Counted from the first letter of the stretch, positions 3,492 through 63,392 are shown. The stretch: 64,000 bases of DNA from a virus (IMGVR_UViG_3300027994_000001:57776-121775); one strand, 5' to 3'. Notes: generated from the sequence alone by a model not told the origin. A program made the numbers and translations.

Positions 3492-3734
3492 TTTAATAAG
3501 ATTGAGTTTCTAAATATATTAATTCTATTTGATAATCAGTTATTTTATCAACCGTTGTCCATTGATACTCGTCCGCTAATTTTCTTTTCTTTTTATCAGG
3601 TAGAGTATTCCACCATTTGATATGTTCTGTCATAGATTTTATATTTTATTTGACAAATCTAAGTAATGTATTTCAATCTCACAAGAAAAATCTGCTTTAT
3701 TTTGTTTTTTGCGCCAAAATGGCTTAAACGAAGT

Positions 3735-3760
3735 GCCGGAAAAAGACTTAAAAACAGAAA
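3735..3760 (-). promoter_or_regulatory. copy of recurrent T-run/GC-palindrome/A-run motif
   Basis: GCCGGAAAAAGACTTAAAAACAGAAA in the 320-bp gap upstream of ORF 3267..3491. Confidence 0.3.
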
Positions 3761-3811
3761 ATAAAAAAATGCCCTTAGTATAAGTAAGAGCATTATAGTT
3801 ATATTAAAATC

Positions 3812-5032
3812 CTAGAACAGATGTGTAATCCGTGCAATCTGCCCATGCTCTTTAGAATGTAAAAATCCTTCAATAGCTTTTGGGGCGAAGTGGTATTGGT
3901 TTCTAGAGTGCCAGGAATCTGTACCTGACGGACTCCTTAAAGCTTCAACATTAACCCCCATATAGTCCTTACTGATTTTGTGGTGAAAGTGGTGGACATA
4001 AAAATATCTATGCTTACAATCACTCCAATCTTTACTTTCATGTGCCATACTAAGAGGTAAATCTGCCAATTTTCCACCGTCTCCATGAGAACTTCCAATT
4101 AGGTTTTGTCCATAAGTAAAATACTTTCTGTGCGCTATAGAACAATCAAATGTTATATTTTCACAGTCTTTAAAATAAGTCCTAATCACATCAGCTAGAA
4201 AGAAACCTACAGTATAATCGTGATTACTCGGATTAAAAACAAAATGAACGTCACTTATTTGTAATAGTCTTGTTAGAACTTCAATATAAATTTCTTTTGC
4301 CATCAAGAAGTTAGAGTACCACATCCCCGATACGTCCTGTACAGTACCTGATGTAGTAGTTCCTTTTGGGGTGTCTATATGGAGTATATCGTTACCACCG
4401 ATAAATAATACCTTATCTATAGGAAAGCCTTTAGTTTTTTCAATAATGCCTTCTACGCCCTCTCTTATGCGTTGAACAGCTATTTGATTATTATAATCTT
4501 CACCTGTCTCAAAACTATCCGCCAGTTTTCCTACGTGACAGTCCGCGGGATCTACGACAAGTAAATAAGATTCTTTATCTAAAGGACGTTCCCTAATTAC
4601 TGCTTTTGGCTTATTAGGTAAGTTTGATAACTCTTCTAATAAAGTTTTGTAGAAATTTTCAAAACCTTCTCCTTTAATTGGATTACTTGCTAAATTATAA
4701 TAAGCCCCCTTAGATGAGTGAGTTACAAGCTTGTATGTTCTAACTTCTTCATAAGGAATTTTATAAAATTCGCAATACTCCTTCAGATTCATGATAGTGC
4801 CATCTGGCTTAAGAGCAGATAACTGAGAAACTGCTTCATACTGATTTGTCTCTGTGAGAGTATCATTTTCTAAATCGTTATCTACAAGTTTGTCTTGTCT
4901 TGCTAAAACCTTAGAACATTGCCTGCGAAAATTGTCTGTGTATGAGATACCTTCTAATTCTGCATATTTTTTAGCTGCTGCTGTGATTGTTTCTTCTACT
5001 TCTACTAGTGATTGTAACTTTTGTACGTTCAT
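3812..5032 (-). CDS. calcineurin-like metallophosphoesterase (406 aa)
   Basis: Metallophosphatase signature blocks: VVDPADCHVG (DxH), FIGGNDILH (GD), NPSNHDY (GNHD/E), and a histidine-rich C-terminus HHFHH. Confidence 0.65.
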   Translation of the reverse strand: MNVQKLQSLVEVEETITAAAKKYAELEGISYTDNFRRQCSKVLARQDKLVDNDLENDTLTETNQYEAVSQLSALKPDGTIMNLKEYCEFYKIPYEEVRTYKLVTHSSKGAYYNLASNPIKGEGFENFYKTLLEELSNLPNKPKAVIRERPLDKESYLLVVDPADCHVGKLADSFETGEDYNNQIAVQRIREGVEGIIEKTKGFPIDKVLFIGGNDILHIDTPKGTTTSGTVQDVSGMWYSNFLMAKEIYIEVLTRLLQISDVHFVFNPSNHDYTVGFFLADVIRTYFKDCENITFDCSIAHRKYFTYGQNLIGSSHGDGGKLADLPLSMAHESKDWSDCKHRYFYVHHFHHKISKDYMGVNVEALRSPSGTDSWHSRNQYHFAPKAIEGFLHSKEHGQIARITHLF

Positions 5033-8244: not shown

Positions 8245-10406
8245 AAAGGTATACCTGTTTTTAATACATTGATTAATCCTTCAATATCTTCTTTTTCATA
8301 AACTGCATATAATTGGTCATCGGAATACATACCATTTCTGTCATAACTCTCAAAGTCTAATTTAAAAGAATTTCCTGTTTCTCTGGCTTTTTCTAGAGTC
8401 TCTGAATATTCATCTGAATCCTGATAATCTAAGTTTCCTATTAACTCCAACTCTACATAATCTGACTGTAATTGCTCTCCTTTTATAAACAAACCGTAGA
8501 AATCTAATGGGTCGTACTCTGAATAAACAGTTCCTTCTGGGAGCTTGAAAAATTCCTCTCTATTTAATATTCTCATACACTTCTCGTTGAGTTAAATAGT
8601 TAATACTTTTCTTTACTTCATCTAAACCTTTATTCTTTATATAAGCATAATCTCCGCGCTCAAATAAAGCAATCATATTAGTTATAGGTGATAGTTTGTT
8701 TCTTATGTCTGGGATTTCTAAACTATCTTTAAACTCAATTAGATGTTTAGTCTTCTCAATCTCTTCTAAAATAATATTAGCTTTTTCTACAAACAATCCA
8801 TAATGTACCTTACCTTCTTTGTCATAAAAACTAGGTTCGCTCCAAGTTCCTTTAAAGTTAGGATCATTGATCAAAGTGTTCTTTATAAGAGTAACTAGAT
8901 TATTATAAAAAACTTCTTCTGATTTAATTTGTTTTCTCATCTGTTTTTTCTTTATTTAATTCGAAACTCAGCCACTCTAAAGCCTTGTAGCTTGACAAAT
9001 GATTCATCCAGCACTTTAGAAAATACTCTCTGTTTTCATAAATCATCTCCTTTGTGTAAGCATAATCTGTACTTCGTTCTCCAACCCATAATAGGTATAA
9101 TTCCCAAGGCATCCAGTCATAAGCGGAAATAATTTGTTCTATTTCTTTTGCTGTTACTTCTTTTCCCGCCATTCAATTTCTTTTTTAATTATATCTAAGT
9201 GCCACTTCTCTCCTCCATAATCTAAAACACCTTGTAAATGATCATCGGTCATGTCACAAATTTTAATCCAGTGTAAAGGTTGGCTTCCATCAACGCCTCT
9301 CGATCCTCTGGTAGCAACAGTCCTCACTAATTCAAAGTCATCATCAGAATAAACAGACAAATCTTCTGCTGGTATTTTATTTACGCTTCTTCTAACGTAA
9401 CCGCCTGTACCACCATCCAACATATACCACTCTTTATTTTCATCTAAGTGGGTTACATAGTCATGCCTGTGCCTAGAAACTAATGTTGTCCCATCAGGTG
9501 TCTTAATTGCATTATAAACTACTATTCTATCCATTTTAAAATCTCTGTTTTAATTTCTTTTTCCTGCGCCTCAGATAATTCTAGTAGCTCATTATCATCA
9601 TAAACTTCCAACAACTCAATTTCGAGATTCTGGATATCAACAGTACTCTGATTCTCTTCGTAAAATGTTGCACCAATATTTTCAGAAACTGTTACATCAG
9701 CTGTAATATTGAATAGAACTTCCCAGCCATTATCTAAAGTTACTTCATGCATTTGATCAACAAATTGTATGCTTTCTAAGTAGTCTATTCCTAACTCTAT
9801 TTTTTCCATAACGCTACGCTTTAAAAATTATATAAAATTTACGTTCTTTTTTCCAAGTAAACCAAAGCACCCAGTCATTGTATATAGTTTTGAATACACG
9901 CGGCTTAAAATGGTTTTCCGCAAAAAGAATTAAAAACAAAGCAAATAATATCCAAATCATAATGTCTCAATTAAATAATTTAACTTCTCTTTAAATGAAG
10001 TTGTTCCATCTACTTCTGTAAGTCTGTCATAAGCCTGAAAGATATGCTCTACAAAATCATCTTGTGTAAGACCTTCTCCTGGCTCTGCATATTTGAACAT
10101 CTCCAATTTATCGACAAGCTTTGTACATTCTGCGTGAGCCTTCCACATCCAAAAATCTCCATCAACAATAGCCGTTTTAAAGTACTGCTGATTAGGTTCG
10201 ATTATGTACCCGCAATAATTACAACGATGCTGTTTCCTTGCCTTGTGTTGAGTTGTTCCCAATACTGTCATATTTTTCTTTTAAGTATTCATAAGGTACA
10301 TCTTTATTACCAAATGAAGCAAATGCCATATTGGTGTCAGTGTCTACTAAAATAATTCTTTCTTTTCCTCTGCCGTAATTCTTAAATAATATCTTTACTT
10401 TCATAA

Positions 10407-10851: not shown

Positions 10852-10885
10852 TTTTTTCGCGCAAAAAGAACTGATAAAAACATTC
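10852..10885 (-). promoter_or_regulatory. copy of recurrent motif
   Basis: TTTTTTCGCGCAAAAAGAACTGATAAAAACATTC. Confidence 0.3.
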
Positions 10886-12147
10886 TCTATAAAATAATCA
10901 TACATATCTCCATCAGAATAACCAAACCATTCATCAGCTCTTTCCTGAGTATCTACTTCTCTTAACCACAATGCAAATTTAATTGCTGTTTCTTTTGTTG
11001 TCATGATTCTATTTGTTTTTTTGTGGTTTGGGTTAGTGTAAATTCAACATCTTCAACTTCTAAAAATATTTCTTCTATAGTTTTAAATTCCATTTCAGAA
11101 ATCATGCATAACCAAGTATCTCCTTTTACTAAATAATTATTTTCAATATGAAATCCTTCAAACAAAACACGATCTTTTGCTTCTTGATATTCTTTAATCA
11201 GTTTTGTTTCTTCTTCTGAATCGTCTATATTTGTATATTTATGAACTCCTGTTCGTTCTGGTAGTTCTTCCAAAAAATTCCCGTCCAAATCGCAAGGAAC
11301 AAACATTCCAATCGTTAAAGGTTGTTTTAGAAATAAAGCATAATTAACAATTTTTTGAAGCAATTCGTGATTACTATCATCTATATTTTTATTTTGATAT
11401 AAAACAAAATCTGTCATTGATATTAATTTACTCCCACTCATTTGGCTCACCTTTTAAAAATTTATTAATTTCAGTTATATTCTTTCTTACGGCGTGAAGA
11501 GCAGACAAATTGCTACACAAACCAACTGTAATTCCATTAATAGTTAACTCGCAGGCTAGATTATTATCCTTTAACAGCTCTTTTACTGCGTTTAACATAA
11601 TTAGCTCGTTCTTAGCTTCTTGTATATCCGCCTCTGATTTTGCAATTGGATTATATATCATAATAGTTTTTAATTGTTAAATTAACATCTTGGAATACCT
11701 TCTTCAGGATTATACCAACCGTGAATATTGAATTGATGTTTTGCTGACGGCTTTTTACCCCACTTTTGAACAGCTTCCTCTTCTGTTACTGGAAAGTGAA
11801 TTTGATTTAATTCTTCTTGATGTTTTTCGTCGCCCATACTTGGGTCAATTTCATGCTTGAATACTAAATTAAGATGTCTCTTAATCATATCTGTTTGTGT
11901 TGTACTTATTGAATCAGCCTCGCTAATCTCAAAAAATCCTTGTAGCCAATAGGCAAAATCTCTACTTGTCATAATTTCGCGGAATAAAAAAAATTAAAAA
12001 TCATCATTTATAAACCCACTTAAAAGAGGGAAAAGAACAAAACAGCAGAAACCTAAAATAGTAGTACAAATCCCCGCAACAATAAAACCAAAGTCTACTA
12101 AAAAAGCACCTCCTATTATAAGGACAGCAATTATAAGTAAAATATAT

Positions 12148-12729
12148 TTATTTTTCATTTTGTAGTTTTTTAAAAATATATTTATTATTTATAACATTAC
12201 CTGAATCTAGGTTGTATAATATTGTACAATTATTCACACTGAGAACTCTAGAGGCAAATCTCACAGACTCAAAAGACTGTGAACAACTATTTTCCAAATT
12301 GATGACCTCTATTGGAATTTTAACCGAGTCCTTGTATTTTTTATCATTTTCTTTCCAAGTAATTAGCCTCATGTTATCAAAAAAATAACTTAAGTCATCT
12401 CTCAAGCGATCTACAGAAGGTCTTTTGTCTCTATCATAATTACTCATAACCCACTCCTTATAAATTTCTGAATAATTATTTTTATACAGCCATTCGGTAA
12501 AATCTACTTTTGAAAAAGCAGGAGGGGCATGCTTTCTCGTTTTACTGCTACTTTTCAAAGACTTATATAATGAAGTAATCAATCCATGCGGTGTTCTAGC
12601 GTAGTACTCATCATATTCTTTTTGACATACCTTGCAATATGATTTTAATATTGGGTTTTTAGAGCTATATAAATTAAATTCACTCTCATTCTTCTCTAAA
12701 GAACATTTACTACAAGTTTTATTCTCCAT
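12148..12729 (-). CDS. HNH_3/AP2-type homing-endonuclease-like protein
   Basis: N-terminal CxxC...CxxC zinc cluster; C-terminal DNMRLITWKEN resembles the HNH_3 NLRLvT..EN block. The usual catalytic His is replaced (VDRL instead of VHHI). Confidence 0.4.
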   Translation of the reverse strand: MENKTCSKCSLEKNESEFNLYSSKNPILKSYCKVCQKEYDEYYARTPHGLITSLYKSLKSSSKTRKHAPPAFSKVDFTEWLYKNNYSEIYKEWVMSNYDRDKRPSVDRLRDDLSYFFDNMRLITWKENDKKYKDSVKIPIEVINLENSCSQSFESVRFASRVLSVNNCTILYNLDSGNVINNKYIFKKLQNEK

Positions 12730-13552
12730 TCTCTAGCATTTTATATTGCACTTCGATTTTATCGAGGTGTTCTTTAGCCATTGGTTTTCCAGAGGTATTT
12801 AACTTCAGAAAATAGTTCAATATATCTTTTTTCCTAAGGTTCTCACCTTTTGTAACGGCCACAGCAACAGCGGTGTCTTCGAAAACGTGTTTTAAACTCC
12901 AAGGAAGTTCAGAATAATAATATCCTTTGTAAGTAAACTGATCTGTGAAAAACCTATACAAGGCTGTCAAACGTTGACGACCGTCCAGGATCTCATACAT
13001 TAAGCCCTCACCATATCCCAAATGAATAAAAACAAATTTCCCAATATCGACATAATTAAAAATAGATTCTATCAGTTTTTGCTCATCTTCTAGACTCCAA
13101 ACTAAATCACGTTGATAAGAAGGATTAAAATTAACTCCAAAATTGATAATGTATGAACCTAATAAACTGCTTACTTGCTGCTGCATAAAACTAAGTCGTA
13201 AATCTTCACCTAATTTGATATCGCATTTATTGTCTGATAATTTAAAAATATCATACCACCCTAAAACTCTTTTTCTAGTTCGAATTTCAGTATTTGATGA
13301 ATAAGGTATATTCATTCTATAAGTTATTTCGATCTCATAGGTATCAGTTTTTAGAATATCAATAATTTTCGCAGAAATAAATCCTCCGTTAGAAACATAC
13401 ACTGATTCACCTATTATAAATTTCTTTCTTTCATTAGGTGCGTTACCTATTCTAGTAAAATCTTCTTGGATGTTTTCAATATCTTTAGCTTTATTTTGCT
13501 CGTAGATTTCATCTTGTGTTAGTTCTACTTTTTCTTTTTTATTTCTTGCCAT
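12719..13552 (-). CDS. DUF262 (ParB-like nuclease/GmrS N-domain) family protein
   Basis: Contains the DGQQR-type motif as ILDGRQRLTAL, characteristic of DUF262. Confidence 0.6.
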   Translation of the reverse strand: MARNKKEKVELTQDEIYEQNKAKDIENIQEDFTRIGNAPNERKKFIIGESVYVSNGGFISAKIIDILKTDTYEIEITYRMNIPYSSNTEIRTRKRVLGWYDIFKLSDNKCDIKLGEDLRLSFMQQQVSSLLGSYIINFGVNFNPSYQRDLVWSLEDEQKLIESIFNYVDIGKFVFIHLGYGEGLMYEILDGRQRLTALYRFFTDQFTYKGYYYSELPWSLKHVFEDTAVAVAVTKGENLRKKDILNYFLKLNTSGKPMAKEHLDKIEVQYKMLENGE

Positions 13553-14120: not shown

Positions 14121-14172
14121 ATTTTTGTTTAATTTTGTTAGTCAAATCGGTTATTTTCCGTTTATCTGTTGA

Positions 14173-14205
14173 TTTTCGCGCAAAAAAGAAATAAAAACAG
14201 AAATT
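14173..14205 (-). promoter_or_regulatory. copy of recurrent motif, about 55 nt upstream of the YopX start
   Basis: TTTTCGCGCAAAAAAGAAATAAAAACAGAAATT between the GIY-YIG stop and the YopX start. Confidence 0.3.
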
Positions 14206-14250: not shown

Positions 14251-15042
14251 CTAATTATTTTTACAATACTTACATTCAGGCTGTATTATTTCTCCAGTTT
14301 CTCTTACTCTATATCTCCATAAGAAGCCTTTATACGATGCCTTCCAGCCATTACAAGTAGATAGCAAAGGACTAGTTTTGTAATTAGGGTTCTTTTCCAA
14401 TAGTTCTAACCTATTTTCAAAAGTCTCTAGTATTTCTCCGGTTAATTTATCTATTTTTAAATATTGATATAAATTATGATGCTCTGAGACCTTCTTCCTC
14501 ATGTCAATTTTTAATTGAGGATTTTCTTCCCATCGTCTATTTCTTTCTTCAATCCCTTTATATGTATTTGCAATATCTATTTTTAGCAAACCATTTGAGT
14601 GTCCTTCTTTTTTAAGATCTGACATGTATTTCTTTTGCTCATCTGACCAATAATTACCAAAGTTAGGATTATCCTCACCTAGAAATTTTCCTTTATATTC
14701 TCTTGACATCTTGTCTCGTTGCCATTGCTCCATTTTTCTACCATGTGTAGATTCTCCACCATTAGTAAGATTCAATAAATTGCCACCACAACAATCGGCT
14801 CTTTTATAATAAGCAATCAAAAGAATTTCTAATTCACAAGCCTCTTCTTTAGTTAAACCTGTAGTAAGTATTTGAACTTCATAATTAGAACAAATTTCAA
14901 TAAATTCTTTCCATTTTTTACTTCGATGTTTTTTATTATAAGGTCTTTTAAGATTATTTCCTATACCAATATAAAATACCATTCCTTCTGAAGTTAGGTG
15001 TCTATAGATACAATAAGGTTTTTCTTTCGTATTTTTATTCAT
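14251..15042 (-). CDS. GIY-YIG homing endonuclease
   Basis: CIYRH...VFYIGIG (GIY/YIG), conserved Arg, EEACELE glutamate, NLTNGG Asn block; long basic C-terminal DNA-binding extension. Lies immediately 3' of the DNA polymerase gene. Confidence 0.75.
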   Translation of the reverse strand: MNKNTKEKPYCIYRHLTSEGMVFYIGIGNNLKRPYNKKHRSKKWKEFIEICSNYEVQILTTGLTKEEACELEILLIAYYKRADCCGGNLLNLTNGGESTHGRKMEQWQRDKMSREYKGKFLGEDNPNFGNYWSDEQKKYMSDLKKEGHSNGLLKIDIANTYKGIEERNRRWEENPQLKIDMRKKVSEHHNLYQYLKIDKLTGEILETFENRLELLEKNPNYKTSPLLSTCNGWKASYKGFLWRYRVRETGEIIQPECKYCKNN

Positions 15043-17146
15043 TTTTTACCTTAGTTTTAGAAGGTTTTATTTCTTTTGGTTCGCCATGAATATCAGATAA
15101 ATACTGTCTCCAGTAAGTGTTATATTGTAATTCTGTGGGTATTTTTGAAATTATAAATTTGAGATAATTTTCTTCTTCTCTTTCTCTTTTCTTCTGTTCG
15201 ATTAAAGCTTTCCTTTCAGCTTCCAATCTTTCCTCTGTTCCATCTACACTGTGAATAATTCGAAAAGCTTGATTGATATAATAATCATAATCAACTTCAT
15301 AATTTTCAGATTTATAATAATCCATAAACATTGAGATTTTACTACCACCAACTGTTATTTCTTTACGACCATCATTATAATTTTTTCGCAAATTATCACC
15401 GTTAGTTGAAACATAAAATCTAATTACTTTATCGTTGATATTTTTTATAATATTTTCCTCATCATCTTCTAATGTATAATTCTGATTACTTTGTATCTTT
15501 TTACCTATACAAAAATCATATATCCCTTGATTCTCTATTTTACCGTAATTACCTACTGATAAATGATTTTTAACTGTTTCTTCTACTGGCACATTGTGAA
15601 TAAAATATCTCATAACTGCAATTTGTACAATTCTTTGACTACGATTTTTATGCATTTCTACATCAATTTCAAAAGCGCCTTTCATTTTTAATTTACCATT
15701 TGTATCAATCCCCAGGTAATTATTTATATCACGGGTAAACAATTTATCATAAACTGAATATTCTAATTGTAATTCAGTTAGATTTTCAATTGATACACAG
15801 GTATTATATACTTCTCTTTTTTTATCTTTAGGTACAATTAACTCAAGACCATCGGTATTTGCCATTACAATCTTAACACCTTCTATTTTAGAGAGCTGTT
15901 CACAGAGCATTGAAAGTATTAACTGACCATTTACTGTGATAGCCATTTGAAATAATTTATCGTAAAGAAAACTGTATTCATCGCCTCCTTTACCAAAAGC
16001 CGCATTTAAAAGTAACTTAATTGCCGTATTTTGAGGGTTTGATTTAGGAATTAATTTACGTTTTTCAAACAATTCTTCATATAATACACAAAAAGCTTCA
16101 GATAAATGTTCTGGGTAAAATCTATTTTTGATCGAGATATTTGGGTAAAAACTTGCAAAATCTATCGAAAGTACAATTTCTTTTTCATTTGAATTAAATA
16201 TAGAATTTCCTCTTGCAAAATGGAGGCCTCCTAAACCATAGAAATATTCACCTTCATCGAATACCATTAAATGTTTAAAAGCATCTTTAGTATCTTCGGT
16301 AATAATTTGTTCTTTAAAAAAGTCTAAAACAGAATTGAATTCAGGTGTTTCAAATTTAATATAAGGAAGAATTATATTTTTTAATTCAATTGTTTTACGG
16401 CGAGTTTGCATTTTCTTTAGTTTACTTTTTTCAATATCTAATTTCTCAGACATCAAATCTAAAAATAATGCTTCTCCAATACTACTATCTGATTTATTAA
16501 ATAATTCTAGATGAGGATTCTCCATCTGTTGAGTAAATCTTAATTCAACTAATTTTTCTGATTTCTTGAAAAATTCTTCTGTTGCGTCTACGTCATTATG
16601 ACAATAAAGAATAACATCGTCAAATTTACCTATTTCAAGAACTTCATCAAATTTATAAGGTAAATCTTGAACTTTTTTCCAGTTCATGGAGTACTCGATC
16701 CACTTTAAGCTACAAGATCTTGCACGATTATTGTAATGGTTCTGTAAAAATAAGTCTAACTGTTGACAAGATAATTTAGATTCTTGATATGGAGGAAATT
16801 CTTTTCTATTTATTTTTTCAATAACAGACTGAGCAAATTCCATAATATGTTTTGCCTTAGTTTTTCCTGTCAGTTTTTTAAATGGCTCTTTAGCTTCCAT
16901 TAACCATTGAAGGACTTGCGCATCAAATCGGCAATTATTGAATCCGATGAAAAACCAGCGTTTTAAAGCACCTTCTTTTAGAAAAGCTATTAGTTCTTCA
17001 TACTGATCTTTTCTCTCGCTTATTTCGAATGTTTTATACCTTCCTTGATATTTAAATACAACACAAAAGATACTTAGAAAAGTTTCAATATCATAAGTTA
17101 AGAATATTATTTGTTCTTTGTTCTCTTCTACTCCTTTATCTTCCAT
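15035..17146 (-). CDS. family B DNA polymerase with 3'-5' proofreading exonuclease (703 aa)
   Basis: Exo I YDIETF, Exo II GFNNCRFDAQVL, Exo III YCHNDVDAT; polymerase motif A IDFASFYPNI (DxxSLYPS), motif B KLLLNAAFGK (KxxxNSxYG), motif C MANTDGL (DTD). Confidence 0.85.
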   Translation of the reverse strand: MEDKGVEENKEQIIFLTYDIETFLSIFCVVFKYQGRYKTFEISERKDQYEELIAFLKEGALKRWFFIGFNNCRFDAQVLQWLMEAKEPFKKLTGKTKAKHIMEFAQSVIEKINRKEFPPYQESKLSCQQLDLFLQNHYNNRARSCSLKWIEYSMNWKKVQDLPYKFDEVLEIGKFDDVILYCHNDVDATEEFFKKSEKLVELRFTQQMENPHLELFNKSDSSIGEALFLDLMSEKLDIEKSKLKKMQTRRKTIELKNIILPYIKFETPEFNSVLDFFKEQIITEDTKDAFKHLMVFDEGEYFYGLGGLHFARGNSIFNSNEKEIVLSIDFASFYPNISIKNRFYPEHLSEAFCVLYEELFEKRKLIPKSNPQNTAIKLLLNAAFGKGGDEYSFLYDKLFQMAITVNGQLILSMLCEQLSKIEGVKIVMANTDGLELIVPKDKKREVYNTCVSIENLTELQLEYSVYDKLFTRDINNYLGIDTNGKLKMKGAFEIDVEMHKNRSQRIVQIAVMRYFIHNVPVEETVKNHLSVGNYGKIENQGIYDFCIGKKIQSNQNYTLEDDEENIIKNINDKVIRFYVSTNGDNLRKNYNDGRKEITVGGSKISMFMDYYKSENYEVDYDYYINQAFRIIHSVDGTEERLEAERKALIEQKKREREEENYLKFIISKIPTELQYNTYWRQYLSDIHGEPKEIKPSKTKVKNE

Positions 17147-36584: not shown

Positions 36585-36661
36585 TTACTTTACTAACGAG
36601 TCTTTAAGGCTTTTATTTATTTTTTACCGAGAGGTAAAGTGTTTTTACTTATTTTAAAATC

Positions 36662-36722: not shown

Positions 36723-36740
36723 GGGGTAAAAACACTTGTT

Positions 36741-51500: not shown

Positions 51501-51613
51501 GTTTTAAAATTTTGATGTTAGTAATTCAATGCAATATAGTAAAAAATTCGCGGAAAAAAGAATAAGAGCAATTAAAACTGCTATTCCTATTTTAATAGAT
51601 AAATCTTTCATAG

Positions 51614-52204
51614 TTAATACATTTTACCATTAGACAAAAACTCATAGTTTGCAGTAAGTGTTTCTTTTATACACTCGTCACTATTATGCCATTCAATTTC
51701 ACTATAACCCATTGCTTCTAATTCTTTACACAAAGAAAGATAGTAATTTTCTATTTTTTCCCTTACTTTAGATACTACATTATTACAATTATCTGTATTG
51801 TAGTGGTTATAGTCTTCTAAATCTAAATTTACATCCCTTACACTTGAAAAAGCATAACGATCTGTAACTTTTATTGAAAAATCTAAATTATCTATCAATA
51901 CTTGTATTTGTTTCTCTTTATTTTGCCCCATAATTTCGGCGAAAAAAGAAACTAAAACAGGATTTTCCAAACCACTGGAATTAAAACTCAATCCATCGCC
52001 TTGTGAGTAACTTAAACTATACTGCAATACAGGCTCTTTAAAACCTTTTTCTTTGATTATTTCTATACAATTTTCTGAAAACATATCTAAACTAATATGC
52101 TCATAGTTTTCATTTCTAAATCTTTCTATTGCATTTTCTTGTGCTTCTTTACTTAACTCATTAAAAGTATAAACTTTTGTTCTAATTGTTCTCATTGTTT
52201 GCAC
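51614..52204 (-). CDS. hypothetical acidic phage protein
   Basis: 196-aa acidic ORF; no motif I can name with confidence. Confidence 0.4.
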   Translation of the reverse strand: MQTMRTIRTKVYTFNELSKEAQENAIERFRNENYEHISLDMFSENCIEIIKEKGFKEPVLQYSLSYSQGDGLSFNSSGLENPVLVSFFAEIMGQNKEKQIQVLIDNLDFSIKVTDRYAFSSVRDVNLDLEDYNHYNTDNCNNVVSKVREKIENYYLSLCKELEAMGYSEIEWHNSDECIKETLTANYEFLSNGKMY

Positions 52205-55200
52205 GCCTTTTTGTTATCAGGAAGCGTCTAAACTCTTTAATTGTTTTTATTGTCTTAAAATGGCTGTAAATAGCCTTGTTTGATGTTTTCTGTTCTTATT
52301 TGTTTTCGGGCAAAATAAAAACCCTAAATTTATTATTTTTAAAACTCCAAGATAATTCATTTCTAATAATACCGTCTTTAAAAGAAACGGTAAAATCTTC
52401 ATTAAGTATATAAGTTGTAGAGTAATAAAATTCATTTAACATTCTTTCTGCTATTGCTTTTGAGCTTGCGGAAATTAATATTTTTGGTTTCATATCTTAA
52501 TGTTTGTAAATAAGTTCGTGAGGTGTGAAAATATCTTGGTATTCTCTTAATCTTTCATAGCTTAATCCGTTTGTACATTCATTTTGAAATTCCAGCCAAA
52601 CAGAAAGAAAACCTTTATCATTTATTGCTATTTCAAAAGCATCTAAATTATCGTAGTTGTTATTTAGTTTCATAATTACAATGTCTTGATTAATAAATTA
52701 ACTTTTTAAGATATTCAAGATTATTCTTTGCTTTTCTTTGTTGTGTTAATCCTGCTTTATATCTTTTCCAATTATACCGACTTACAGAATTAATAAATGC
52801 TAAAATATCGGTCGTTCCTCTTACTGCTAAACGTCTGGAAATATCTGAACACTTGTTATTTGTTATAATAGCGTGATAAAAAGTCGATTTGTTTTTTATT
52901 CGTGCTCTTCTTTCATTTGTATACGCCATTCCTTTGGCAAGTCTTGAAGGCCTGTTTTCTATTTGTGGTTTTACACCCCAATATAATATCTGTTTTTTGC
53001 TTTTAGTTTTCATATTTATTTGAATTGCGACATTTAAAGTGTCGTTATGTCGTGATTAATTTTCGCGGGAATAAAAAAAATGAAAAAGAAAATTACATAT
53101 CAGCCATAATAACATAACCAGTATATAATAAGTCAATTTCTTCACAAATATACTGTGTTACGGGACAATTTGTAGTACGTTCTTTTAGTTCTTTCAGTGC
53201 TTTTATAATTGCTTCACATCTTTTTAAATCTCTTTCATAACTGTAAGTAGTTGACTGTGTAACATCAAAGCTTAAGTTCTGTAGTAATAGACTTAATAAA
53301 TCGTGATTCGGCCAAACAACTGTAAGAAAAGATAAAAAAGTTCTTGTTTTCTCTACTTGTTTTTTAAATGCGGATAACTGTTTTTGTGTTTTCATAATTA
53401 TTATATTAAATTTGCCGGGAAAAAAGAATTAAAAGAAAGGATTATATAACCACAATAGTAAGACAATCACTAAAATAAACCCTATCAAATAACAATTGAG
53501 CCAAACCATTTACAGTTAAGCTTACTACACCGCTGTTATGGTCATAAGACGAGTAACTCCCCTCTATAACATTAACAGTTATTTCTGTATATAAATTATT
53601 TTCGTAGTATTGACATTCATTGTTTTTAATTAAGTCTAATACATTTACTTTTGGTATTTGGATTGCTTCCATTGTGTTAAAATTTGTTAAGTATTAAATA
53701 TAGTGTTTATAGGTCGATAAATTCAAAAAAGACCAATCGGTCATAAAAAGAGTGCTTATAAAAGGAATGAAAAGGTATTGAGGGAATTGTCCTCACCTTT
53801 AAAGCCCTGTAAAAGTTTAAACTATTCTCAATAAAAAAGAAATTCCCTGAGAATTATGCGTATTGGCTCTAGGCGAGAATAAAAGAAAGTTGCGAATAAT
53901 GCAATTTAAAGCTTTTTATACTCTTTTAGCTCAATTGAATTCCCCTCACAGTCGAAATAAATAGTATAACGTTTGTCACTGCAATAATTTTTCTTAACTA
54001 AGTAATGAGCTTTTGCGCTTTTGTTTGCGTTAATGATTAATTTTACATAGTATAGTGTTATGTAGTTATTAAACATTTGTATTCTGTATCCGTAATCTTT
54101 CTTAGTTACTTTTGTTACTCTAGTTCCTTGAGTGTTTATTGGTTCTACTGTTAATAGTTGATTGTAGTTCATAATATTTTTCTGTTTTTATTTCTTTTTT
54201 GCGCGAAATTTAGTCTAAACTATAATAAGTTTCTTCATCCATATCAATAAAATATGTAGTATGATTGTTGAAAGAAACTTTAAACTTTGATAAGCTATTA
54301 TCTATAAAAGATAAGCTTCTTATTGAAATAGATAGAAAAGGTGTTTTTGTATCTATAAACTCTATTAACTGTATAATATTAAATGACTTCATTGTATTAC
54401 TTTTTAAATTCTTTTAATTCCCTTTGTAAACAGTTTTCTTTTAGCTTGTGAGTAGTTTTAATTTTATACTTTTCATATGCTTGTCTTGGTGTTGTAACTG
54501 TTTTAAATGTTTTCAGTTCTTTTTTTACCGCCTCAAAAGCTTGGTATCTGTAAAAGTCTCCATAACCATATTGAAAAGGTAGTATTAATCTTTTTTCAGT
54601 TTGTTTGCCCGCATTTACAATTACTTCGCCTGCAAAATAACTGTTCCCGTTTACCTTGTCAAACCATTCTTTACAATGTACATCGATGGTTTTTATATTG
54701 TTTGCTTTCATTTTCTTTCTGTTTAGTTTTTGTTTGCGCGAATAATAGCTTTGATTCTTTTAATTTCAGCGGCCGTTTTATTTACTGTAAAATCATTTAA
54801 TAACTCACTCAATACATTTAGAATATAATACTTAGTTGTATCGTCATTCTCTATAATAAAATCATAGCCATTCCAGTAGTTACGGTTAATTTCTTTGTAA
54901 GCATCAGTACATTTAATATTGATTGCCACGCCCGCATTAAAAACTGAGATATCAAAGAAAAGATAATCTTTTGAACTGTTAAACGCTCTTAATAGTTCTT
55001 TAATTGGGCTTGTCTGTAGTGTGTTTATTAGTGACATAATAATAAGTTTTAAATGAATATTTGTTTTAGTGCCGTTCCTAATCTCGCTTTAAGGTGCTAG
55101 TCATTAACTATCAAACGGCTTTGTTTTTCTTTTCCCGCATTTCGCCGACAAAAAAGAATAAAACAGACTTTTAAATTAAGTCTAATATAATAAATCCTTA

Positions 55201-55566
55201 CTAAATAAGGAATGAAATAATCTATGTTACTGCTTTAGTCCTTTGTTTACCCTCGCAAAACTAATACGAGATAGTTTTAAAAGATAACTACTAACTTTTG
55301 TAAGAACGTGTTTCAAAGATGCGTTTAAATCTTTAATAGCTTTATTAGATACTATTAAACTATTTACATTTGCGAAGTGAATGCCTTTCGACCTTAACAC
55401 TATTCTAAGAGCTTAACACGAACTTAGATGCTTGAATATTTTACTGCTTTAATTCTTATACAAATATATGTCGATATTTAATATAAAATACTGAAAATAA
55501 ATTTTTTTATTTGAAATGTTTTTCGTATAACGTGCGTGTGCGTTCCTATATTAATCTGTTTTAGTT

Positions 55567-55611
55567 TTTATTTCGCGCGAAAAAAGAATAGTAGTCAATA
55601 AAACAAAACCG
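55567..55611 (-). promoter_or_regulatory. copy of recurrent motif inside the large non-coding region
   Basis: TTTTATTTCGCGCGAAAAAAGAATAGTAGTCAATAAAACAAAACC. Confidence 0.3.
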
Positions 55612-57558
55612 CAATTAAATCATAAATATAAAATCAATATAATACTAAGAATAAAAGAACAGAAAGAAAAGTTATAAAATAAAATATCTGTACAAATAAG
55701 TAATAGCTGGAAATAACATAATAACAAACATAGATAAAGACCAGATAAAAACTTCAAAAACTAGGATCGATTTTAAGCCCTTGTATGAAAAATGAAACGG
55801 TTTTGGATGTTGACCCTCGGGCTACCCCAGAAACGCCAGGATTTGATACGTCAATCCCAGTAGGTCTAAGTACAGAGGGACACGTAAACAATTTTTAAAA
55901 TATGTACCATTCACAAAAATTTTTAGAAAATAAAAACCCTCACCAAAAATTGAAATCAAGTTCAAAGTTTAGGGAGGGGGTTCATTATAAATAGGGGTAT
56001 TAATCTAAGGGGTGGGTATTCTTAACTAAGTAGTAATACTGGTTGATTGTCTCCCTCATATCCTTTATGTGTGTTCGCATGTATTCAGCTAGTATATAAG
56101 GAAAAGTTCCTTTGTCTTTTTTCCATTGATCTAACTGATATAGTTTGTCACTGATTCTATCTAAGTTATTGTGAGCATCATGCTGTAAGTTTATATTGGC
56201 TTTATCTCTGTTTAGAAGTATTTCTTCTATGTTGTAGAATAGTGCCAGTTCTACTTTATGTTCTGCATATCTTTCTATTACGTGGCTTAGTTCTTCAAAG
56301 TTATCGAAGTCTAATGTTTTCTCTATATCTGGATACTTTTCTGTTATGAATTCGTATAGTGTCATTTAATTTTCTGTTTTTAAGCTTTTTCGGCGGCTTT
56401 TCTCTTTCTTCTAAAGCCGGCTAGTATTAAATTGTAATCGTATCTGTAAAATAACCTGCTTCTAAATATTGTACATAAGACACAACTCATAAATAAATTA
56501 AATTTTTCCATATGTATGATCATAGTATTCATCTGATGATTTAAAATTTTGTTTTTCTCCAAAGCTGTATGCCATTTTTATCTCTGTTTCAATTTCTTTT
56601 TCGGCCGACTTCTGCCTGATAGAATAAAGAAGTTTCTTTTGTTTTTCTTACATATACTTTTTTCATAACTATTTTACTGTTACTGATTTTTTACCGTTCC
56701 AAATTCCAGTATCCAGTTCTTTAATAATCTCTTCGGCTTTATTAAAAACATTTTCTGCTTTTTCTACTGTGCCGTATACTCTAACAATTATTTTACCTTT
56801 TTTCATCTCTTTTCCAGATGATTTTAATTCCCATTTAAATACCCCGACTGAGAAGGTTTTATTCCACCCTGCTTCTGACAGAGAGTTATCTTTATCGTAA
56901 TCATGTTTATCTGTAAATTGAATATCTTTTGTATTATACATATATTTATTTTTTGAAATATTCTGAAAATTCTACCACTCTTAATCCTGACTCCTTTTGA
57001 TAATATACACTTCCGACAGATCCTATTGAATACTTAGTTTTCTTTTTTGCCCAGATTACAATTGCTGTTGGTTCTGTTTCCATAGGGGGCGACCAGTCAA
57101 TGTATAATACTTCCTTACCTAAAAAGTTTTGAATTATGTCATACTCTTCTTTATTTTTTATTTGTATTGATAATCCTTTTTCTTTTTTCACATTAATTCC
57201 TTTAGGTGGTTCATACTCATCTATGTTTATTCCTGAGTCTGGTTTTACTTGGATGTTTCTTATGTGGTCGTTTCTTTTTAGTTTCATTGTTTTTCCGCCG
57301 ATTCGAAATTATCCTTAAAATATTGCTCGGCAATCAACCACTGATCTAAATGGTTTTTAGGATTACGCCCAATCATGTCACCAATCTTAGGACTTCCATT
57401 GTCTAAATCAGCTTCACTTATAGAGACTAATTTATCATAATTATGCTCAATACAACCATAAGCTTTGAACTTTATTATATCTGATTCTGTAACTTCTCTT
57501 ATTTCTGCTATTTGACTTCTTCTGTATTGTTTAAAATCTTCCATATTATTTTTGTGTT

Positions 57559-57903
57559 TTATTTGTTTTCCGCGAATTCCTCATCAAACAACTCACTGTC
57601 ATCTCTATCGCACCAGCATCTTGAACAATACCACTCTCTTGAATAAGTATCTGCATCACATTCTGGGCAGTATTCTATGTTATCAATAGTGTTTACTTTG
57701 GTTATATCGTATTTCCAATGCGCGCAGATATCTTTTCTGTGAACGTCTCTTTCTCTTGGATATAAACTGCAAACAAATATAGTATCTTCGGAACTCCTGT
57801 CATTTTTATCTTCATAAAGAAATTTCCCATTATTATCATATACACTGAATGGTAGTTTTCTTTTTGCGTACTTACAAGAAGAACAGCTGACTTTTAATTC
57901 CAT
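57559..57903 (-). CDS. cysteine-rich zinc-ribbon protein
   Basis: Multiple CxxC pairs: CSSC, CPEC, CSRCWC. Confidence 0.4.
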   Translation of the reverse strand: MELKVSCSSCKYAKRKLPFSVYDNNGKFLYEDKNDRSSEDTIFVCSLYPRERDVHRKDICAHWKYDITKVNTIDNIEYCPECDADTYSREWYCSRCWCDRDDSELFDEEFAENK

Positions 57904-60421: not shown

Positions 60422-61105
60422 GAACTCTGTTTTTATTTATACAAATGTAGTAAATATATTTTAGACTGCAAAACTTTTTTCTGTTTTTATTTGTTTTTTG
60501 CGGAAAATAAAAAATCCCTCTGTTTTATGAGAGGGATGATTTTTAATGGCCTTTAACTTCGGCATTTATTGTTGGATGGTTTATCAATTCATTTGTTCTG
60601 CTTATGTTATACCTTTGGAAGTTTATTTCTTTTTCTATTCTCCAAATAACTTTATGAATGTTACTTAACATCCCTTCAGGCGGTTCAACTCCTTTGGTGG
60701 TTTCACTAGCCTCAGGCTCTGGAGTTGCAGACAATAAACTCTGATTTAAATTATAATGGTTTTCATTATTTGAGTTTAACTGTCCTGATATTTCTTGTAA
60801 TTTGTAATATGCGTTTTCTAAATTCATTCTATTTAATTTTATTGGTTTTAAAATATTGTATTGCGCTGATTATATTATTTCCTTTATACATCTGTAACCA
60901 AATACTGAATATACTTTCAAACTGATCATATGGAATTACTTTAAATGATTCGCAATATAAATTATAGCAGATTTGCCAATTGTTTCCATTTCCTCTTTTG
61001 ATTATCTCGTCGAACCTTTCTTGTTTCATATCTATCGTCAATTGTAAACGATTATTTTGTGTAAGTGGTAGTAAGATATGCCTTGATGTATTTTAGTAGT
61101 TTAAA

Positions 61106-61867
61106 TTAACGAAAACGTCTTTCTGATTCCATTCGTCTTAAACACTCTAAAGCTGTCTCACCTTTTTTCATTTGGTATGAACAACCTACTGTACCACCTT
61201 TCCAGCTTCCTGCTCTTTCACCCATTTCATTTTTGAACTCAACTTCTATACAATGTCTCATCATCTTACCTAAGCCGAACCAGTTTCTCCACGTTCTTTT
61301 TTCTTCATAAATTTCAGCTGTTGTGTACTGTTTTTCGCCGGAATTTAAGGTATATGTATAAGGATGAGTTTCTAACAGTGTTTTATCTCCCCACACATCT
61401 TTATCCCAAAGATTATCACCTTTCTGTTCTGTGTACCATCCGTCTTTGTGTAAAACTTCTCTTTTATAAAACTTATACGCCCAGGGAAAATAAAAGGACT
61501 TCCAGCCTCTAATCCAAATTTCTGTTGGAAATCCACCATCTGCGTGATAAAACATTACTCCGTATGTAGGAGACTCTGCGTCATTATTTTTACCTGTGTC
61601 AAATGGAAGATGTAAATATATGCTTCCCCAGCTGTAAAAGCAGAAAAATAATGAAATTGGTAACAAATATAAGCTAAAAAACGGTAGAATTAATGCTAAT
61701 ATAGTTGTAAGATTTGTATTAATTTGTGGTCTAGGATCGAAATATCCATAAGGTTCATAACATAAGTAAAAACCTGTGCCTTTATTTCTTTGTGCGGAGA
61801 AAGTAAGCCACTCATTATAGTATTCTGTGTCTTGCTCTCTGAATTTTAATTTGAATGTTCCGATCAT
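61106..61867 (-). CDS. hypothetical membrane protein
   Basis: 253-aa ORF with an internal hydrophobic stretch ILALILPFFSLYLLPISLFFCFY. Confidence 0.4.
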   Translation of the reverse strand: MIGTFKLKFREQDTEYYNEWLTFSAQRNKGTGFYLCYEPYGYFDPRPQINTNLTTILALILPFFSLYLLPISLFFCFYSWGSIYLHLPFDTGKNNDAESPTYGVMFYHADGGFPTEIWIRGWKSFYFPWAYKFYKREVLHKDGWYTEQKGDNLWDKDVWGDKTLLETHPYTYTLNSGEKQYTTAEIYEEKRTWRNWFGLGKMMRHCIEVEFKNEMGERAGSWKGGTVGCSYQMKKGETALECLRRMESERRFR

Positions 61868-62334
61868 TATAAATTTATTTGTTTAAATTGGTTTTTGTAT
61901 AAAATAACGTCTAGTCCGTTATTAAATCGCTTAATTTGTTTCTTATTAAGTCCTAGTTTTCTAAGTTTATTAGCGAAAATCTTATTATTATTCTCGTCTT
62001 GTTTAGTCATTATCCTTTCATCTACTATAGATGAGTTACGAAGCGGATAAACCAATCTATCCCACTTATGAAACAGAATAAAATCTAATCCTTCATGTGT
62101 TAATCTGCCCGTATAGTCTGTAAGTATCATTGTACCTGCGGAAATCAATGCATCAGTCAATGTGATCTCAATATTATCGCCGAGGGAATTAAAGAAGTTA
62201 ATAAGACATCTCATAGGATCTAGGCTTCCGCCTTCTGTGCCAAACCAAAGTTTTATATTTTCTTTTCCGTCTATTTTTTCAATTAGTTTATTAACTGACT
62301 CTGCGTCTATGCTTTCATTAAAATAGTAATACAT
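61867..62334 (-). CDS. ClpP/NfeD-like serine protease (short, 155 aa)
   Basis: IKLWFGTEGGSLDPMRCLINFF...TDALISAGTMILT...GLDFILFH parallels ClpP INSPGGSVTAG...GQAASMG...MIHQP, with candidate Ser and His positions. Confidence 0.45.
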   Translation of the reverse strand: MYYYFNESIDAESVNKLIEKIDGKENIKLWFGTEGGSLDPMRCLINFFNSLGDNIEITLTDALISAGTMILTDYTGRLTHEGLDFILFHKWDRLVYPLRNSSIVDERIMTKQDENNNKIFANKLRKLGLNKKQIKRFNNGLDVILYKNQFKQINL

Positions 62335-62651
62335 TTATATTGTTTTATTGTATTTTTTATATGATGAACATTGCCTTTTATAAGTTGGTACATATGCGGA
62401 AGCTAATGTCACCTCGTCTGTTATTATGAAATAACTTTTGCTCTCAACATACTCTTTACTAATTTCTCCATTAATATCATAGTGTATTCCATCTATCTCG
62501 GTTATCCAATGCCCATCATTTTGAGAATAACAAGGTCTTGCGTTAGGATATACAGATTTGATTATTTTATAAAGCCTGAAACAGCTCCCCTCTGTGTATA
62601 TTTTATCGTTTAAATGATAACTATACTTAAGTTCTTTTAGGAAGTCTAGTA

Positions 62652-63392
62652 TCATTTACTTCCTAATTGGTAACCTGCGAATATTCCCGCCGCTATACCC
62701 ACTGGAATTAGTACTTTATTCCACCAGCTTTTAGTTCTAAGCTTATCGTTCTCTAATTCTAAGTTTTTATTTAGATTTGTCTGGAGTTGATTTACTTCTT
62801 TATATGAATTTAAAGATTTTTCCGCGGAAAACAATAAAACAGAAGAATTTTTTATCTGTTTATCTTTACTTACAATAACACTGTCTTTAATAGTAAGCTG
62901 ATTATCTTTTTCTTTAATTACTTCTGAAGCTGTGTTTGCATCAGAGACTGTCTCTAAAATTTGATAAGGTAAACTGCTTTTAATATCAATTGAGTTACTC
63001 GTAGCTGTTGCGTTTTTTCCTCCATAAACTGTATTTAATTCCTCGGCCACACCTTGTAGAGACAGATTTTTAATTTCTGTTTTCTTTTTGGTGTTGAGTG
63101 CTTGCAGTTCTTTTACTTTGTTTTCACTTTTTTCTGCCGATTTTTTAAGTTCTTTAATTCTGGCTTCTGCTTTAGCGTTTTCAAGTCTGATTGAATCTTT
63201 TTGTCGAAATCGTGCTTTCTCGGTAGCTACCAACCCATCTTTAAGTATTTGAACCTGCTCTTTGAGTATTTTATTCTCGCCGTGGATTTGATCAGCTTTT
63301 TTAGAGTTGCATGATCTGGCGGAAAAAAGAACAATAAGAGCAACTACTGCCCCAATTACCCACCACTTGTATTTATTTATTACTTCTTTCAT
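62652..63392 (-). CDS. membrane-anchored coiled-coil protein (candidate lysis or structural accessory, spanin-like topology)
   Basis: N-terminal hydrophobic segment WWVIGAVVALIVLFSARSC, a long Lys/Glu-rich coiled coil, and a C-terminal TM helix IPVGIAAGIFAGYQLG. Confidence 0.3.
   Translation of the reverse strand: MKEVINKYKWWVIGAVVALIVLFSARSCNSKKADQIHGENKILKEQVQILKDGLVATEKARFRQKDSIRLENAKAEARIKELKKSAEKSENKVKELQALNTKKKTEIKNLSLQGVAEELNTVYGGKNATATSNSIDIKSSLPYQILETVSDANTASEVIKEKDNQLTIKDSVIVSKDKQIKNSSVLLFSAEKSLNSYKEVNQLQTNLNKNLELENDKLRTKSWWNKVLIPVGIAAGIFAGYQLGSK

Follow-up and report, generated by a model that had tools for sequence, protein, structure and literature searches.

A recurrent asymmetric intergenic motif, placed in both orientations near gene starts in a clade of metagenomic phages: a candidate operator-like DNA site

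The viral DNA segment IMGVR_UViG_3300027994_000001:57776-121775 (64,000 nt, referred to here as the window) contains many copies of a bipartite, asymmetric motif of about 30 bp which is composed of a short T-run, a CG-rich core and phased A-tracts. The motif is enriched well beyond expectation, occurs in both orientations close to gene starts, is conserved within one clade of phages, and is neither a host promoter nor a terminator nor an RNA structure. For an asymmetric element of this length with matching profiles in both orientations, the simplest explanation is recognition of duplex DNA by a protein that works independently of orientation. We tentatively regard the motif as an operator-like duplex-DNA site for a putative regulator of accessory or early gene cassettes and give this reading a probability of roughly 40%. 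Both the binding of a protein and an effect on transcription are what we infer from the arrangement of the sites.

The window has a GC content of 31.1% and is about 91% coding, with an intergenic share of 8.5%. All of the approximately 156 mostly small open reading frames (ORFs) called in it are located on the minus strand. With at most one mismatch, the sequence TTTTNCGCGNAAAA was found 13 times in the window, whereas 0.48 matches were expected. A strict pattern, T{3,}[GC]{3,7}A{3,} with the requirement of a CG or GC, yielded 34 sites in comparison to 5.4 expected from a Markov-1 and 6.7 from a Markov-3 model. The 482 G/C runs of at least 4 nt serve as an internal control that removes composition as an explanation: they are flanked by a T-run and an A-run in 49 cases and by the mirror arrangement, A before T, in only 10. 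Of the CGCG tetranucleotides in the window, 24 of 49 stand in such a T...A context; the total compares with 36 expected, and CGCG is not depleted elsewhere. The most over-represented 8-mers of the window represent the core and its flanks, and the same kind of words independently rank as top k-mers in three related contigs (L007, L008 and L009). Another repeated sequence, GTAGGTAAGC, was checked as well and was not significant.

Concerning their location, 14 of the 34 strict sites lie in intergenic DNA, which corresponds to a five-fold enrichment. A site is present within 70 nt upstream of 29 of the 156 gene starts, compared with 7% of random 70-nt windows, and 35 of the 155 gene junctions bear one. 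The distance between core and ATG is mostly 4-34 nt and in some cases 39-59 nt. The original prediction of such a motif is confirmed in part: the frequency above background and the bias toward gene starts are borne out, and its example coordinates were verified. Its remark that few copies fall inside coding sequence needs correction, since about one third of the strict matches are located within ORFs. Some of these are probably coding coincidences in which F-A-E-K is encoded by TTT GCG GAA AAA, such as the one within the helicase gene at 24622.

The anatomy of the motif was derived from 60 sites of the window and six related loci, aligned on the TAAAAACAG box; a core-anchored position-weight matrix had drifted to a generic A-rich profile owing to the variable box offset, and the box-anchored alignment was used instead. 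The portion formed by T-run, CG-core and A-run is quasi-palindromic, and the arm AAAAAG-AWT-TAAAAACAG can stand on either side of it. The core comprises 3-7 nt, mainly 4-6, and is heterogeneous (CGCG, GCGC, GCGCG, CCGCGG, CGGCG, CGCCGG, CCGC). Three A-tracts (AAAAAG-AWT-TAAAAAC-AG-AAAA) are helically phased with a spacing of 10-11 bp. Neither terminal inverted repeats nor target-site duplications nor a hairpin were detected in the 60-site alignment and the folding of 56 sites.

In terms of orientation, 31 of the 60 copies read with the genes and 29 against them; by looser criteria, the counts in the window alone are 28 and 14. The two orientation sets share one position-frequency profile, with correlation coefficients mostly around 0.9-1.0 and values of 0.64-0.73 at a few weakly conserved positions. 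The spacing between box and core is 8-10 nt in both sets, which shows the box to be tied to the core rather than to the ATG. The occurrence of the same 30-bp motif both ways, with matching profiles and nearly equal numbers, favors the general idea of the original prediction, namely a sequence-specific protein-binding site. Its plus-strand consensus with the arm GAWTTAAAAACAGAA describes about one third to one half of the copies; the rest have the arm on the other side of the core and are read on the minus strand.

The two orientations differ in their surroundings. Copies reading with the genes occupy compact junctions, where the box often supplies, with its TAA, the stop of the preceding gene, and several upstream ORFs end in F-A/C-E/G-K/N-K, residues encoded by the motif itself. 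In these copies, 2-9 nt separate the end of the box from the next ATG, and the box includes TAAAA, which has been proposed as the ribosome-binding consensus of Flavobacterium at a distance of 2-12 nt from starts (PMC2483708). Longer gaps, often beside a promoter, house the copies reading against the genes. These copies are nearest to the consensus despite a T-rich arm that opposes the A-rich composition of the coding strand.

The individual copies in the window are given below; plus denotes copies that read against the genes and minus those that read with them.

14172-14200, plus: copy ATTTT-CGCGC-AAAAAAGAAA-TAAAAACAG, intergenic, with ATG 14120 lying 56 nt downstream; promoter-like TTGCAC-N-TAGTATTG 11 nt upstream in gene direction; ortholog kept in L007
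24266-24294, plus: copy ATTTT-CCGCGG-AAAAAGATT-TAAAAACAA, intergenic, after a hairpin and T-run and followed by the host-type -7 box TAAATTTG (24235-24242)
29025-29050, plus: copy with CGCGC core, intergenic, ATG 29014 at 15 nt; promoter-plus-motif unit conserved in L003 and L006
29413-29438, plus: copy with CCGC core, intergenic, 31 nt before ATG 29386
48612-48640, plus: copy TTTTT-GCGCGG-AAAAAGATT-TAAAAACAA, intergenic, 14 nt before ATG 48602
10853-10883, plus: copy with CGCGC core and box offset 12, overlapping the final codons of the upstream ORF, 23 nt before ATG 10834
9913-9939, plus: copy within the small membrane-protein ORF 9814-9960, conserved in L007
51932-51960, plus: copy with CGGCG core within the called ORF 51614-52195
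62817-62842, plus: copy with CCGCGG core within ORF 62652-63392
3730-3757, plus: copy GCCGG-AAAAAGACT-TAAAAACAG without T-run, predicted originally at 3735
2441-2465, plus: copy GCGC-AAAAGAC-TAAAAACAA
21936-21967, plus: weak copy with the interrupted core GCACG within ORF 21899-22141, predicted originally at 21940
11973-11994, unoriented: core without clear box, TTTTTTTTATT-CCGCG-AAATT-ATG, with T-rich upstream flank; core 5 nt from ATG 11972
31386-31399, unoriented: core only, TTTTATT-GCGCG-AAAA-ATG, 4 nt from ATG 31385
32541-32565, unoriented: CCGGCG core, T-rich arm on the gene-upstream side; the -7 box TAGGTTTG of a host-type promoter (32497-32504) follows about 45 nt downstream
51544-51575, unoriented: CCGCG core, T-rich arm on the gene-upstream side and weak box, intergenic
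53059-53081, unoriented: intergenic CCCGCG core with ATG 53013 at 50 nt; T-rich arm on the gene-upstream side
53409-53437, unoriented: CCCGGC core, T-rich arm TTTCTTTTAATTCTTTTTT, intergenic, 18 nt from ATG 53395
60481-60508, minus: copy ATTTT-CCGC-AAAAAACAAA-TAAAAACAG between the terminator 60514-60537 and the promoter TTTG-N19-TACATTTG (-7 box 60442-60449)
54182-54210, minus: copy TAA-ATTT-CGCGC-AAAAAAGAAA-TAAAAACAG-AAAAATATT-ATG, filling the 37-nt gap before the gene at 54172
54719-54745, minus: copy encoding the C-terminus of the upstream ORF (..IIRANKN*), with the TAA of the box as its stop; ATG 7 nt after the box
57550-57579, minus: copy overlapping the final codons of the upstream ORF (..EFAENK*), 27 nt before ATG 57544
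56374-56402, minus: copy GCCGCCG-AAAAAGCT-TAAAAACAG-AAAATTAA-ATG without T-run
55556-55588, minus: copy TTCTTTTTT-CGCGCG-AAATAAAAAC-TAAAACAG inside a 962-nt non-coding stretch
52290-52316, minus: copy ATTTT-GCCCG-AAAACAAA-TAAGAACAG
46813-46842, minus: copy TATTT-CGCGCG-AAAATAAAAC-TAAAAACAG-AAG-ATG, with an alternative start codon directly after
45249-45274, minus: copy AATTT-GCGC-AAAACAAT-TAAAAACAA-GAAC-ATG, intergenic
43698-43728, minus: copy CTTTT-GCCGC-TAAAAAGA-TAAAAACTA-AAAAAT-ATG, intergenic
42693-42721, minus: copy GAATT-CGCCGG-AAAAAAGAT-TAAAAACAG within the short called ORF 42580-42801
30965-30993, minus: two-armed copy CTCTGTATGTTACTTCTTTTT-CGCCGG-AAAATAAAC-TTAAAACAA, 26 nt before ATG 30956
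19258-19285, minus: copy TAATTAATTT-CGGCG-AAAAAAGAA-TAAAAACAG-AAAAA-ATG, orthologous site kept in L007
18522-18547, minus: copy AAAT-CGGCG-AAAAAGG-TAGAAACAG-ATG, related sequence in L007
18227-18245, minus: compact junction copy TAA-TTT-CGCG-TAAAACTGAAAA-ATG
17960-17988, minus: junction copy with weak box, TAAGGATTT-CGCGG-AAAAAGAGG...
17592-17609, minus: compact junction copy TAA-TTT-CGCGGG-A-TAAAAACA-ATG
24600-24627, minus: motif-like sequence in the DnaB-like helicase ORF (conserved peptide ..FAEKIFKTDE..), probably a coding coincidence

The non-coding stretch mentioned in this list (55038-55999) comprises 962 nt without an ORF, is bounded by a terminator-like hairpin and carries two motif copies as well as three host-type TAnnTTTG boxes (55732, 55468, 55263). 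It has no match in Rfam and probably encodes one or more non-coding RNAs. A piece of 104 nt is 78% identical to a stretch in the relative L005.

Promoters of the primary sigma factor in Bacteroidota follow the consensus -33 TTTG / -7 TAnnTTTG (PMC2483708). Host-type promoters of the form TTG-N17-21-TAnnTTTG(CAGAAGAA) were identified in the window with -7 boxes at 60442-60449, 32497-32504, 24235-24242, 23065-23072 and 3654-3661, and also in the relatives. The motif contains neither of the two boxes and, as these promoters are distinct features, its identity with a host promoter was rejected. A scan with the sigma-70 consensus gave 94 matches versus 98 in shuffled sequences and is uninformative, as expected for a host from the Bacteroidota. 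The -7 box that had been predicted next to the motif at 24267 is indeed present downstream of that site; the arrangement varies, with host-type promoters on either side of the motif at different sites. In five to six cases, a copy reading against the genes follows such a promoter at a distance of 11-14 nt (window ~14215 and ~29100, L003 4258, L006 4020, L007 12849; L009 13742 is counted here with a distance of 22 nt), corresponding to a motif position of about +5 to +35 in the transcript. In others, the motif is found 20-70 nt upstream of the promoter (window 60449, 32504, 24242 and 3661, L007 5246, L008 13218), and so there is no single geometry. A unit of about 70 bp consisting of promoter plus motif recurs before unrelated genes in the window, L003, L006, L007 and L009.

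At the RNA level, folding of 60-nt windows around 56 sites revealed no excess of structure (mean z -0.03). A function as RNA hairpin or terminator was therefore rejected, also because the order is T-run, core and A-run (49) and not A-run, core and T-run (10). Canonical terminators with GC stems exist separately from the motif, namely at 60514-60537, at ~28240 and at the convergent point in L133 (12230). Known RNA families and tRNAs provided no match for the motif in Rfam and tRNA searches. Two further candidates were dropped: frameshifting on AAAAAAG, a sequence that is present in some copies only and could not be used by inverted ones, and a likeness to T7 class II terminators (ATCTGTT vs yTGTTTTTA), where the match is partial, the orientation conflicts and no T7-like polymerase is known here.

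Among the recognizable genes of the window are those for a family-B-like DNA polymerase (15035-17146), a DnaB-like helicase, a primase-like protein, exonucleases and a Band-7 protein, and the RNA-repair genes for a T4-type RNA ligase and a polynucleotide kinase/phosphatase. Pfam scans of the 156 ORFs found no sigma factor or RNA polymerase and a single clear helix-turn-helix protein (29791-30153). No near-identical sequence is present among the GenBank phages, the nearest cultured relatives being the Cellulophaga phages phi17:2 and phi4:1 (145 kb) with a helicase identity of about 27%. In IMG/VR, the window is related to a clade of contigs of ~141-144 kb, with identities of 77-95% for the DNA polymerase and a patchy 65-80% at the nucleotide level. 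Shine-Dalgarno sequences are lacking at the start codons of the window, which together with the TTG-N17-21-TAnnTTTG promoters points to a host from the Bacteroidota, probably a flavobacterium.

The motif is present in the related contigs L003, L004 and L006-L009 and lacking in L010 (51% polymerase identity), L001 (37% GC) and the Cellulophaga phages phi4:1 and phi17:2; a 50-kb stretch of phi17:2, with the same GC content and gene organization, has essentially none. By IMG/VR identifier, the motif is carried by IMGVR_UViG_3300022932_000014, 3300023106_000001, 3300023118_000008 and 3300023314_000001, and is lacking in 3300001262_000008 and 3300023082_000011. This distribution indicates that the motif was innovated in one sub-lineage. 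Orthologous sites keep their presence and orientation while the flanking intergenic sequence diverges (window 14179 in L007, 29032 in L003 and L006, 19278 in L007, 9919 in L007). These comparisons also bear on the question of whether the pattern could have arisen by chance or from base composition alone, in an AT-rich genome whose coding strands are rich in A. For some copies inside ORFs and in gene direction, F-A-E-K codons and the A-rich coding strand offer an explanation, as in the helicase gene, but the five- to six-fold excess over the Markov models, the T...A contexts outnumbering A...T, the T-rich arms running counter to strand composition, the absence from phi17:2 at equal GC content and the conserved orthologous sites all argue against a chance origin, which is effectively refuted.

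The accessory region is highly mosaic: of the 63 gene junctions that could be compared, just 5 keep synteny throughout, and homology blocks generally end at gene boundaries. The motif occurs at 13 of 58 broken junctions, in comparison to 35 of 155 overall, so that no enrichment was detectable there. In L006, homology with L003 and the window stops immediately past the core. An example of cassette-wise shuffling comes from window 28736-29129 compared with L003 4240-4604 and 7814-7887: the gene for a 92-amino-acid protein (ATG 29014) is found elsewhere in the gene order of L003, where it has moved together with its promoter and motif and left a remnant of upstream sequence at its original place.

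By means of the contigs L133 and L134-L143, the comparison was extended past the window. Copies of the motif are located upstream of small genes in a convergent operon of the relatives (L134 12485 and 13210, L135 13919, L136 14311); they read against the direction of that operon with cores 4-6 nt from the ATG. The placement of the motif follows the local gene direction. Within ~22 kb of large structural-like genes of the relatives, no motif was found upstream of genes, a weak piece of evidence given that this region has only two to three gaps. Outside of the clade, an arm-only scan of viral contigs gave chance matches in unrelated AT-rich contigs only. A scan of bacterial genomes with a shortened pattern (CGN...) gave 120 single chance matches in unrelated taxa, with clustering of copies in none of the genomes, and is silent on the host. 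A literature search by sequence and topic returned no account of the motif or of regulation in this clade.

The extended comparison also gave a view on the neighboring regions. About 0.9 kb beyond window coordinate 1 (L133 12200-12270), the array of minus-strand genes is closed by a strong terminator that works in both directions, AAAGCCCCCC...GGGGGGCTTTC. The operon that converges on it encodes a Thg1-like protein, an RNA ligase, small proteins and two giant proteins of ~1900-2100 amino acids, so that, together with the T4-type RNA ligase and polynucleotide kinase/phosphatase of the window, two RNA-repair gene sets are present. The gaps before large structural-like genes in L141, L139 and L143 (413-460, 6261-6369) share TTGCAAAT(A/C)TCAAA(A)TAAA ... 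TA(T/A)TTT(T/C)G, which may represent a late-promoter variant of the host-type consensus.

According to the operator-like reading, a single sequence-specific protein would recognize the motif, probably a phage-encoded regulator or an architectural protein peculiar to this clade. The sites stand about 5-35 bp ahead of the start codon in roughly every fourth or fifth small accessory or early gene, and some adjoin host-type early promoters or follow just downstream of them. From there, the protein could act on transcription into or through the downstream cassette, with the site as an operator, a roadblock or an activator site, and such action would be independent of the facing of the site; an architectural protein might instead bend the DNA at the phased A-tracts. 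In tight junctions, the copies are placed with the genes, and the A-rich arm doubles as stop codon (TAA) and TAAAA ribosome-binding region; in roomier gaps, often by a promoter, they face against the genes. Several observations weigh against this proposal. No obvious conserved regulator is encoded in the window and no binder was identified there; the only clear helix-turn-helix protein has no homologue in L003. The variation of the core in length (3-7 nt) and sequence is unusual for a rigid dimeric operator. Positions relative to host-type promoters range from about -70 to about +40, and no one geometry of repression or activation fits them. Finally, the tight coupling of the copies that read with the genes to the start codon, together with their TAAAA, would also fit a role at the RNA level for that class.

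Different explanations can be set against an operator. The motif could be a phage-specific promoter of the middle or delayed-early type, from which a redirected host RNA polymerase, or a phage sigma factor or polymerase, starts in the A-run just past the core, giving short-leader or leaderless mRNAs. The size of ~30 bp, the copy number and the placement 4-34 nt upstream resemble known sets of phage promoters, the tandem arrangement with host-type early promoters recalls the early and middle promoters of T4, the lineage specificity is typical of phage promoters, and no copy was seen in the sampled region of large structural-like genes. Nevertheless, we consider a promoter unlikely, and the original suggestion of a middle or late promoter is weakened: co-orientation is expected where a ratio of about 1:1 was found, the part common to both orientations is a GC-rich quasi-palindrome and an improbable melting element, no matching sigma factor or polymerase gene was found in the window, and some cores lie just 4-6 nt from the ATG. 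A similar difficulty arises for an element acting as RNA. In such a scheme, copies in gene direction would serve as translational operators or enhancers over the TAAAA region (compare the targets of T4 RegA and the start-associated sequences of Cluster K phages), and copies facing the other way as U-rich leaders, which would either raise translation or base-pair with A-rich sites. This is in line with the box ending shortly before the ATG and containing TAAAA, with a similar box at 60430 inside the leader of a transcript from a host-type promoter, and with the complementarity of the two classes over at least 20 nt. However, the two orientations are unrelated as RNA and yet match position by position as DNA, the copies against the genes are the ones nearest to consensus and conserved between genomes, the box keeps its distance to the core and not to the ATG, and RNA structure is not in excess. 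An RNA-level element is thus improbable, and the earlier idea of a translational operator, for which only the sense orientation is expected, has lost ground with half of the copies inverted. Either a promoter or an RNA operator would account well for one orientation class and leave the other entirely unexplained. A special form of RNA-level action would make the orientations partners: U-rich copies against the genes could pair over at least 20 nt, with the CGCG as a clamp, with A-rich TAAAA copies in a phage-wide RNA-RNA network. Such pairing could mask ribosome-binding regions or make double-stranded processing sites, and could be temperature-tuned in a cold-water host. The U-rich copies are often located at the 5' end of early transcripts, and both classes lie within mRNAs of the same direction; if pairing were required, the symmetry at the DNA level would be a consequence of it. 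We regard this network as a distant prospect.

The mosaic genome structure raises the question of whether the motif is a boundary element of mobile cassettes, in the manner of a PeSL-like recombination hotspot (PeSL, promoter-early stem-loop), or a spreading miniature selfish element with regulation as a secondary role. This could account for the extreme mosaicism, the promoter-plus-motif unit before unrelated genes, the end of L006 homology right past the core and the joint movement of the gene at 29014 with its unit. It is nonetheless rather doubtful, as the motif shows no detectable excess at broken junctions, has no terminal inverted repeats, target-site duplications or hairpin, and would with its interspersed inverted copies favor harmful inversions although each arm keeps one gene direction; homology blocks stop at gene boundaries in general. 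The original prediction had also named a recognition site of the phage's own C5-methyltransferase, a gene for which is present at 718-1341, and a nick site as in T5-like phages would be another form of target for a DNA-modifying or DNA-cutting enzyme. The motif accounts for half of all CGCG tetranucleotides. Against such a target stand the heterogeneous cores (CGCG, GCGC, CGGCG, CGCCGG, CCGC), the 20-nt arm and the placement upstream of genes, both of which are left unexplained, the lack of CGCG depletion elsewhere, and the occurrence on both strands, since the known nick sites of T5-like phages are confined to one strand. We consider an enzyme target very unlikely.

The motif belongs to the pervasive intergenic cis-elements of phages and differs from each system compared here in a tested defining feature, mainly orientation. 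The stoperators of Cluster A mycobacteriophages, temperate phages with a known repressor, are ~24-36 asymmetric repressor sites of 13-14 bp which are located in short intergenic regions and strongly co-oriented with transcription. Shared with these are the many copies of one asymmetric site in short gaps apart from promoters, with a presumed action on transcription passing through the operons; in contrast, our motif shows a 1:1 orientation, a length of ~30 bp, a variable GC core, phased A-tracts and no known lysogeny module. PeSL cassettes from the hyperplastic regions of T4-type phages also represent a repeated regulatory unit between small shuffled ORFs, comparable to the ~70-bp unit in five to six cases, but here a stem-loop is missing (z ~0), most copies are promoter-free, both orientations occur and no enrichment was detectable at synteny breaks. 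The start-associated sequences (SAS/ESAS) of Cluster K mycobacteriophages, whose function is unproven, are found directly upstream of some start codons in a single orientation and span the ribosome-binding region. The copies reading with the genes are similarly placed directly before starts and overlap the ribosome-binding region, whereas an equal number is inverted, with the arm pointing away from the start. The dozens of lineage-specific copies upstream of genes, sometimes in tandem with early promoters, are reminiscent of the MotA-box middle promoters of T4 and of the promoter motif of crAss-like phages. These sets are directional and keep a constant spacing from the -10 element and the start of transcription, and all but four intergenic matches of the crAss-like middle/late promoter motif are in sense direction; the present motif lacks a partner of the -7 or -10 type and can point in both directions. 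Finally, the RIP/BIME elements of E. coli, which bind IHF and gyrase, are likewise intergenic, present in many copies and both orientations, often just past stop codons, and contain asymmetric protein sites with A-tracts. Unlike BIME/REP sequences, which are GC-rich hairpin palindromes of a bacterial chromosome, the motif is unfolded, lacks an IHF consensus and resides in a phage.

Several further features of the window, all on the minus strand, were observed in the course of the analysis. The C5-cytosine methyltransferase-like protein (718-1341) is very small (208 amino acids) and has a PCQ motif and little space for a target-recognition domain. A stand-alone GmrSD_N/DUF262 protein with ParB fold is encoded at 12722-13552. 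At 61109-61867, among small accessory genes, lies a homologue of the CBASS inhibitor Acb3 (Pfam PF25187, E = 2.5e-36), accompanied by a YunG-like protein and other uncharacterized ORFs, and this part of the genome resembles an anti-defence region. A reverse transcriptase of ~316-325 amino acids (35607-36584) matches RVT_1 and, in PADLOC, generic reverse transcriptase, DRT UG17/UG26/Drt3a and retron-like models. It has a 183-nt non-coding stretch upstream (36558-36740) and homologues in L003 (87%) and L006 (57%), and could be retron-like, DRT-like or of the DGR type with an associated non-coding RNA. A tRNA-like RNA of ~117 nt at ~23715-23834 shows a 7-bp acceptor-like stem (GGGGAGT/ACTCTCC), a T-arm-like hairpin GUAGG-UUCAAAU-CCUGC and two more hairpins, with a minimum free energy of -29.7 kcal/mol (z -1.6); it was called by neither ARAGORN nor Rfam.

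Beyond the crAss-like group, gene regulation in phages of Bacteroidota is almost unexplored, and the clade of ~141-144 kb described here is known from metagenomes alone. In its fast-evolving accessory region, which is also home to anti-defence genes such as the Acb3 homologue, the motif marks about one quarter of the gene junctions and thereby defines a regulon that can be read directly from the sequence. Its bidirectional use is an unusual design, as is the way in which one sequence serves both as stop codon and as ribosome-binding region. If one protein does bind these sites, it would probably be a master switch of early or accessory gene expression, and motif and binder together would provide a handle for experiments and for the annotation of related metagenomic phages.

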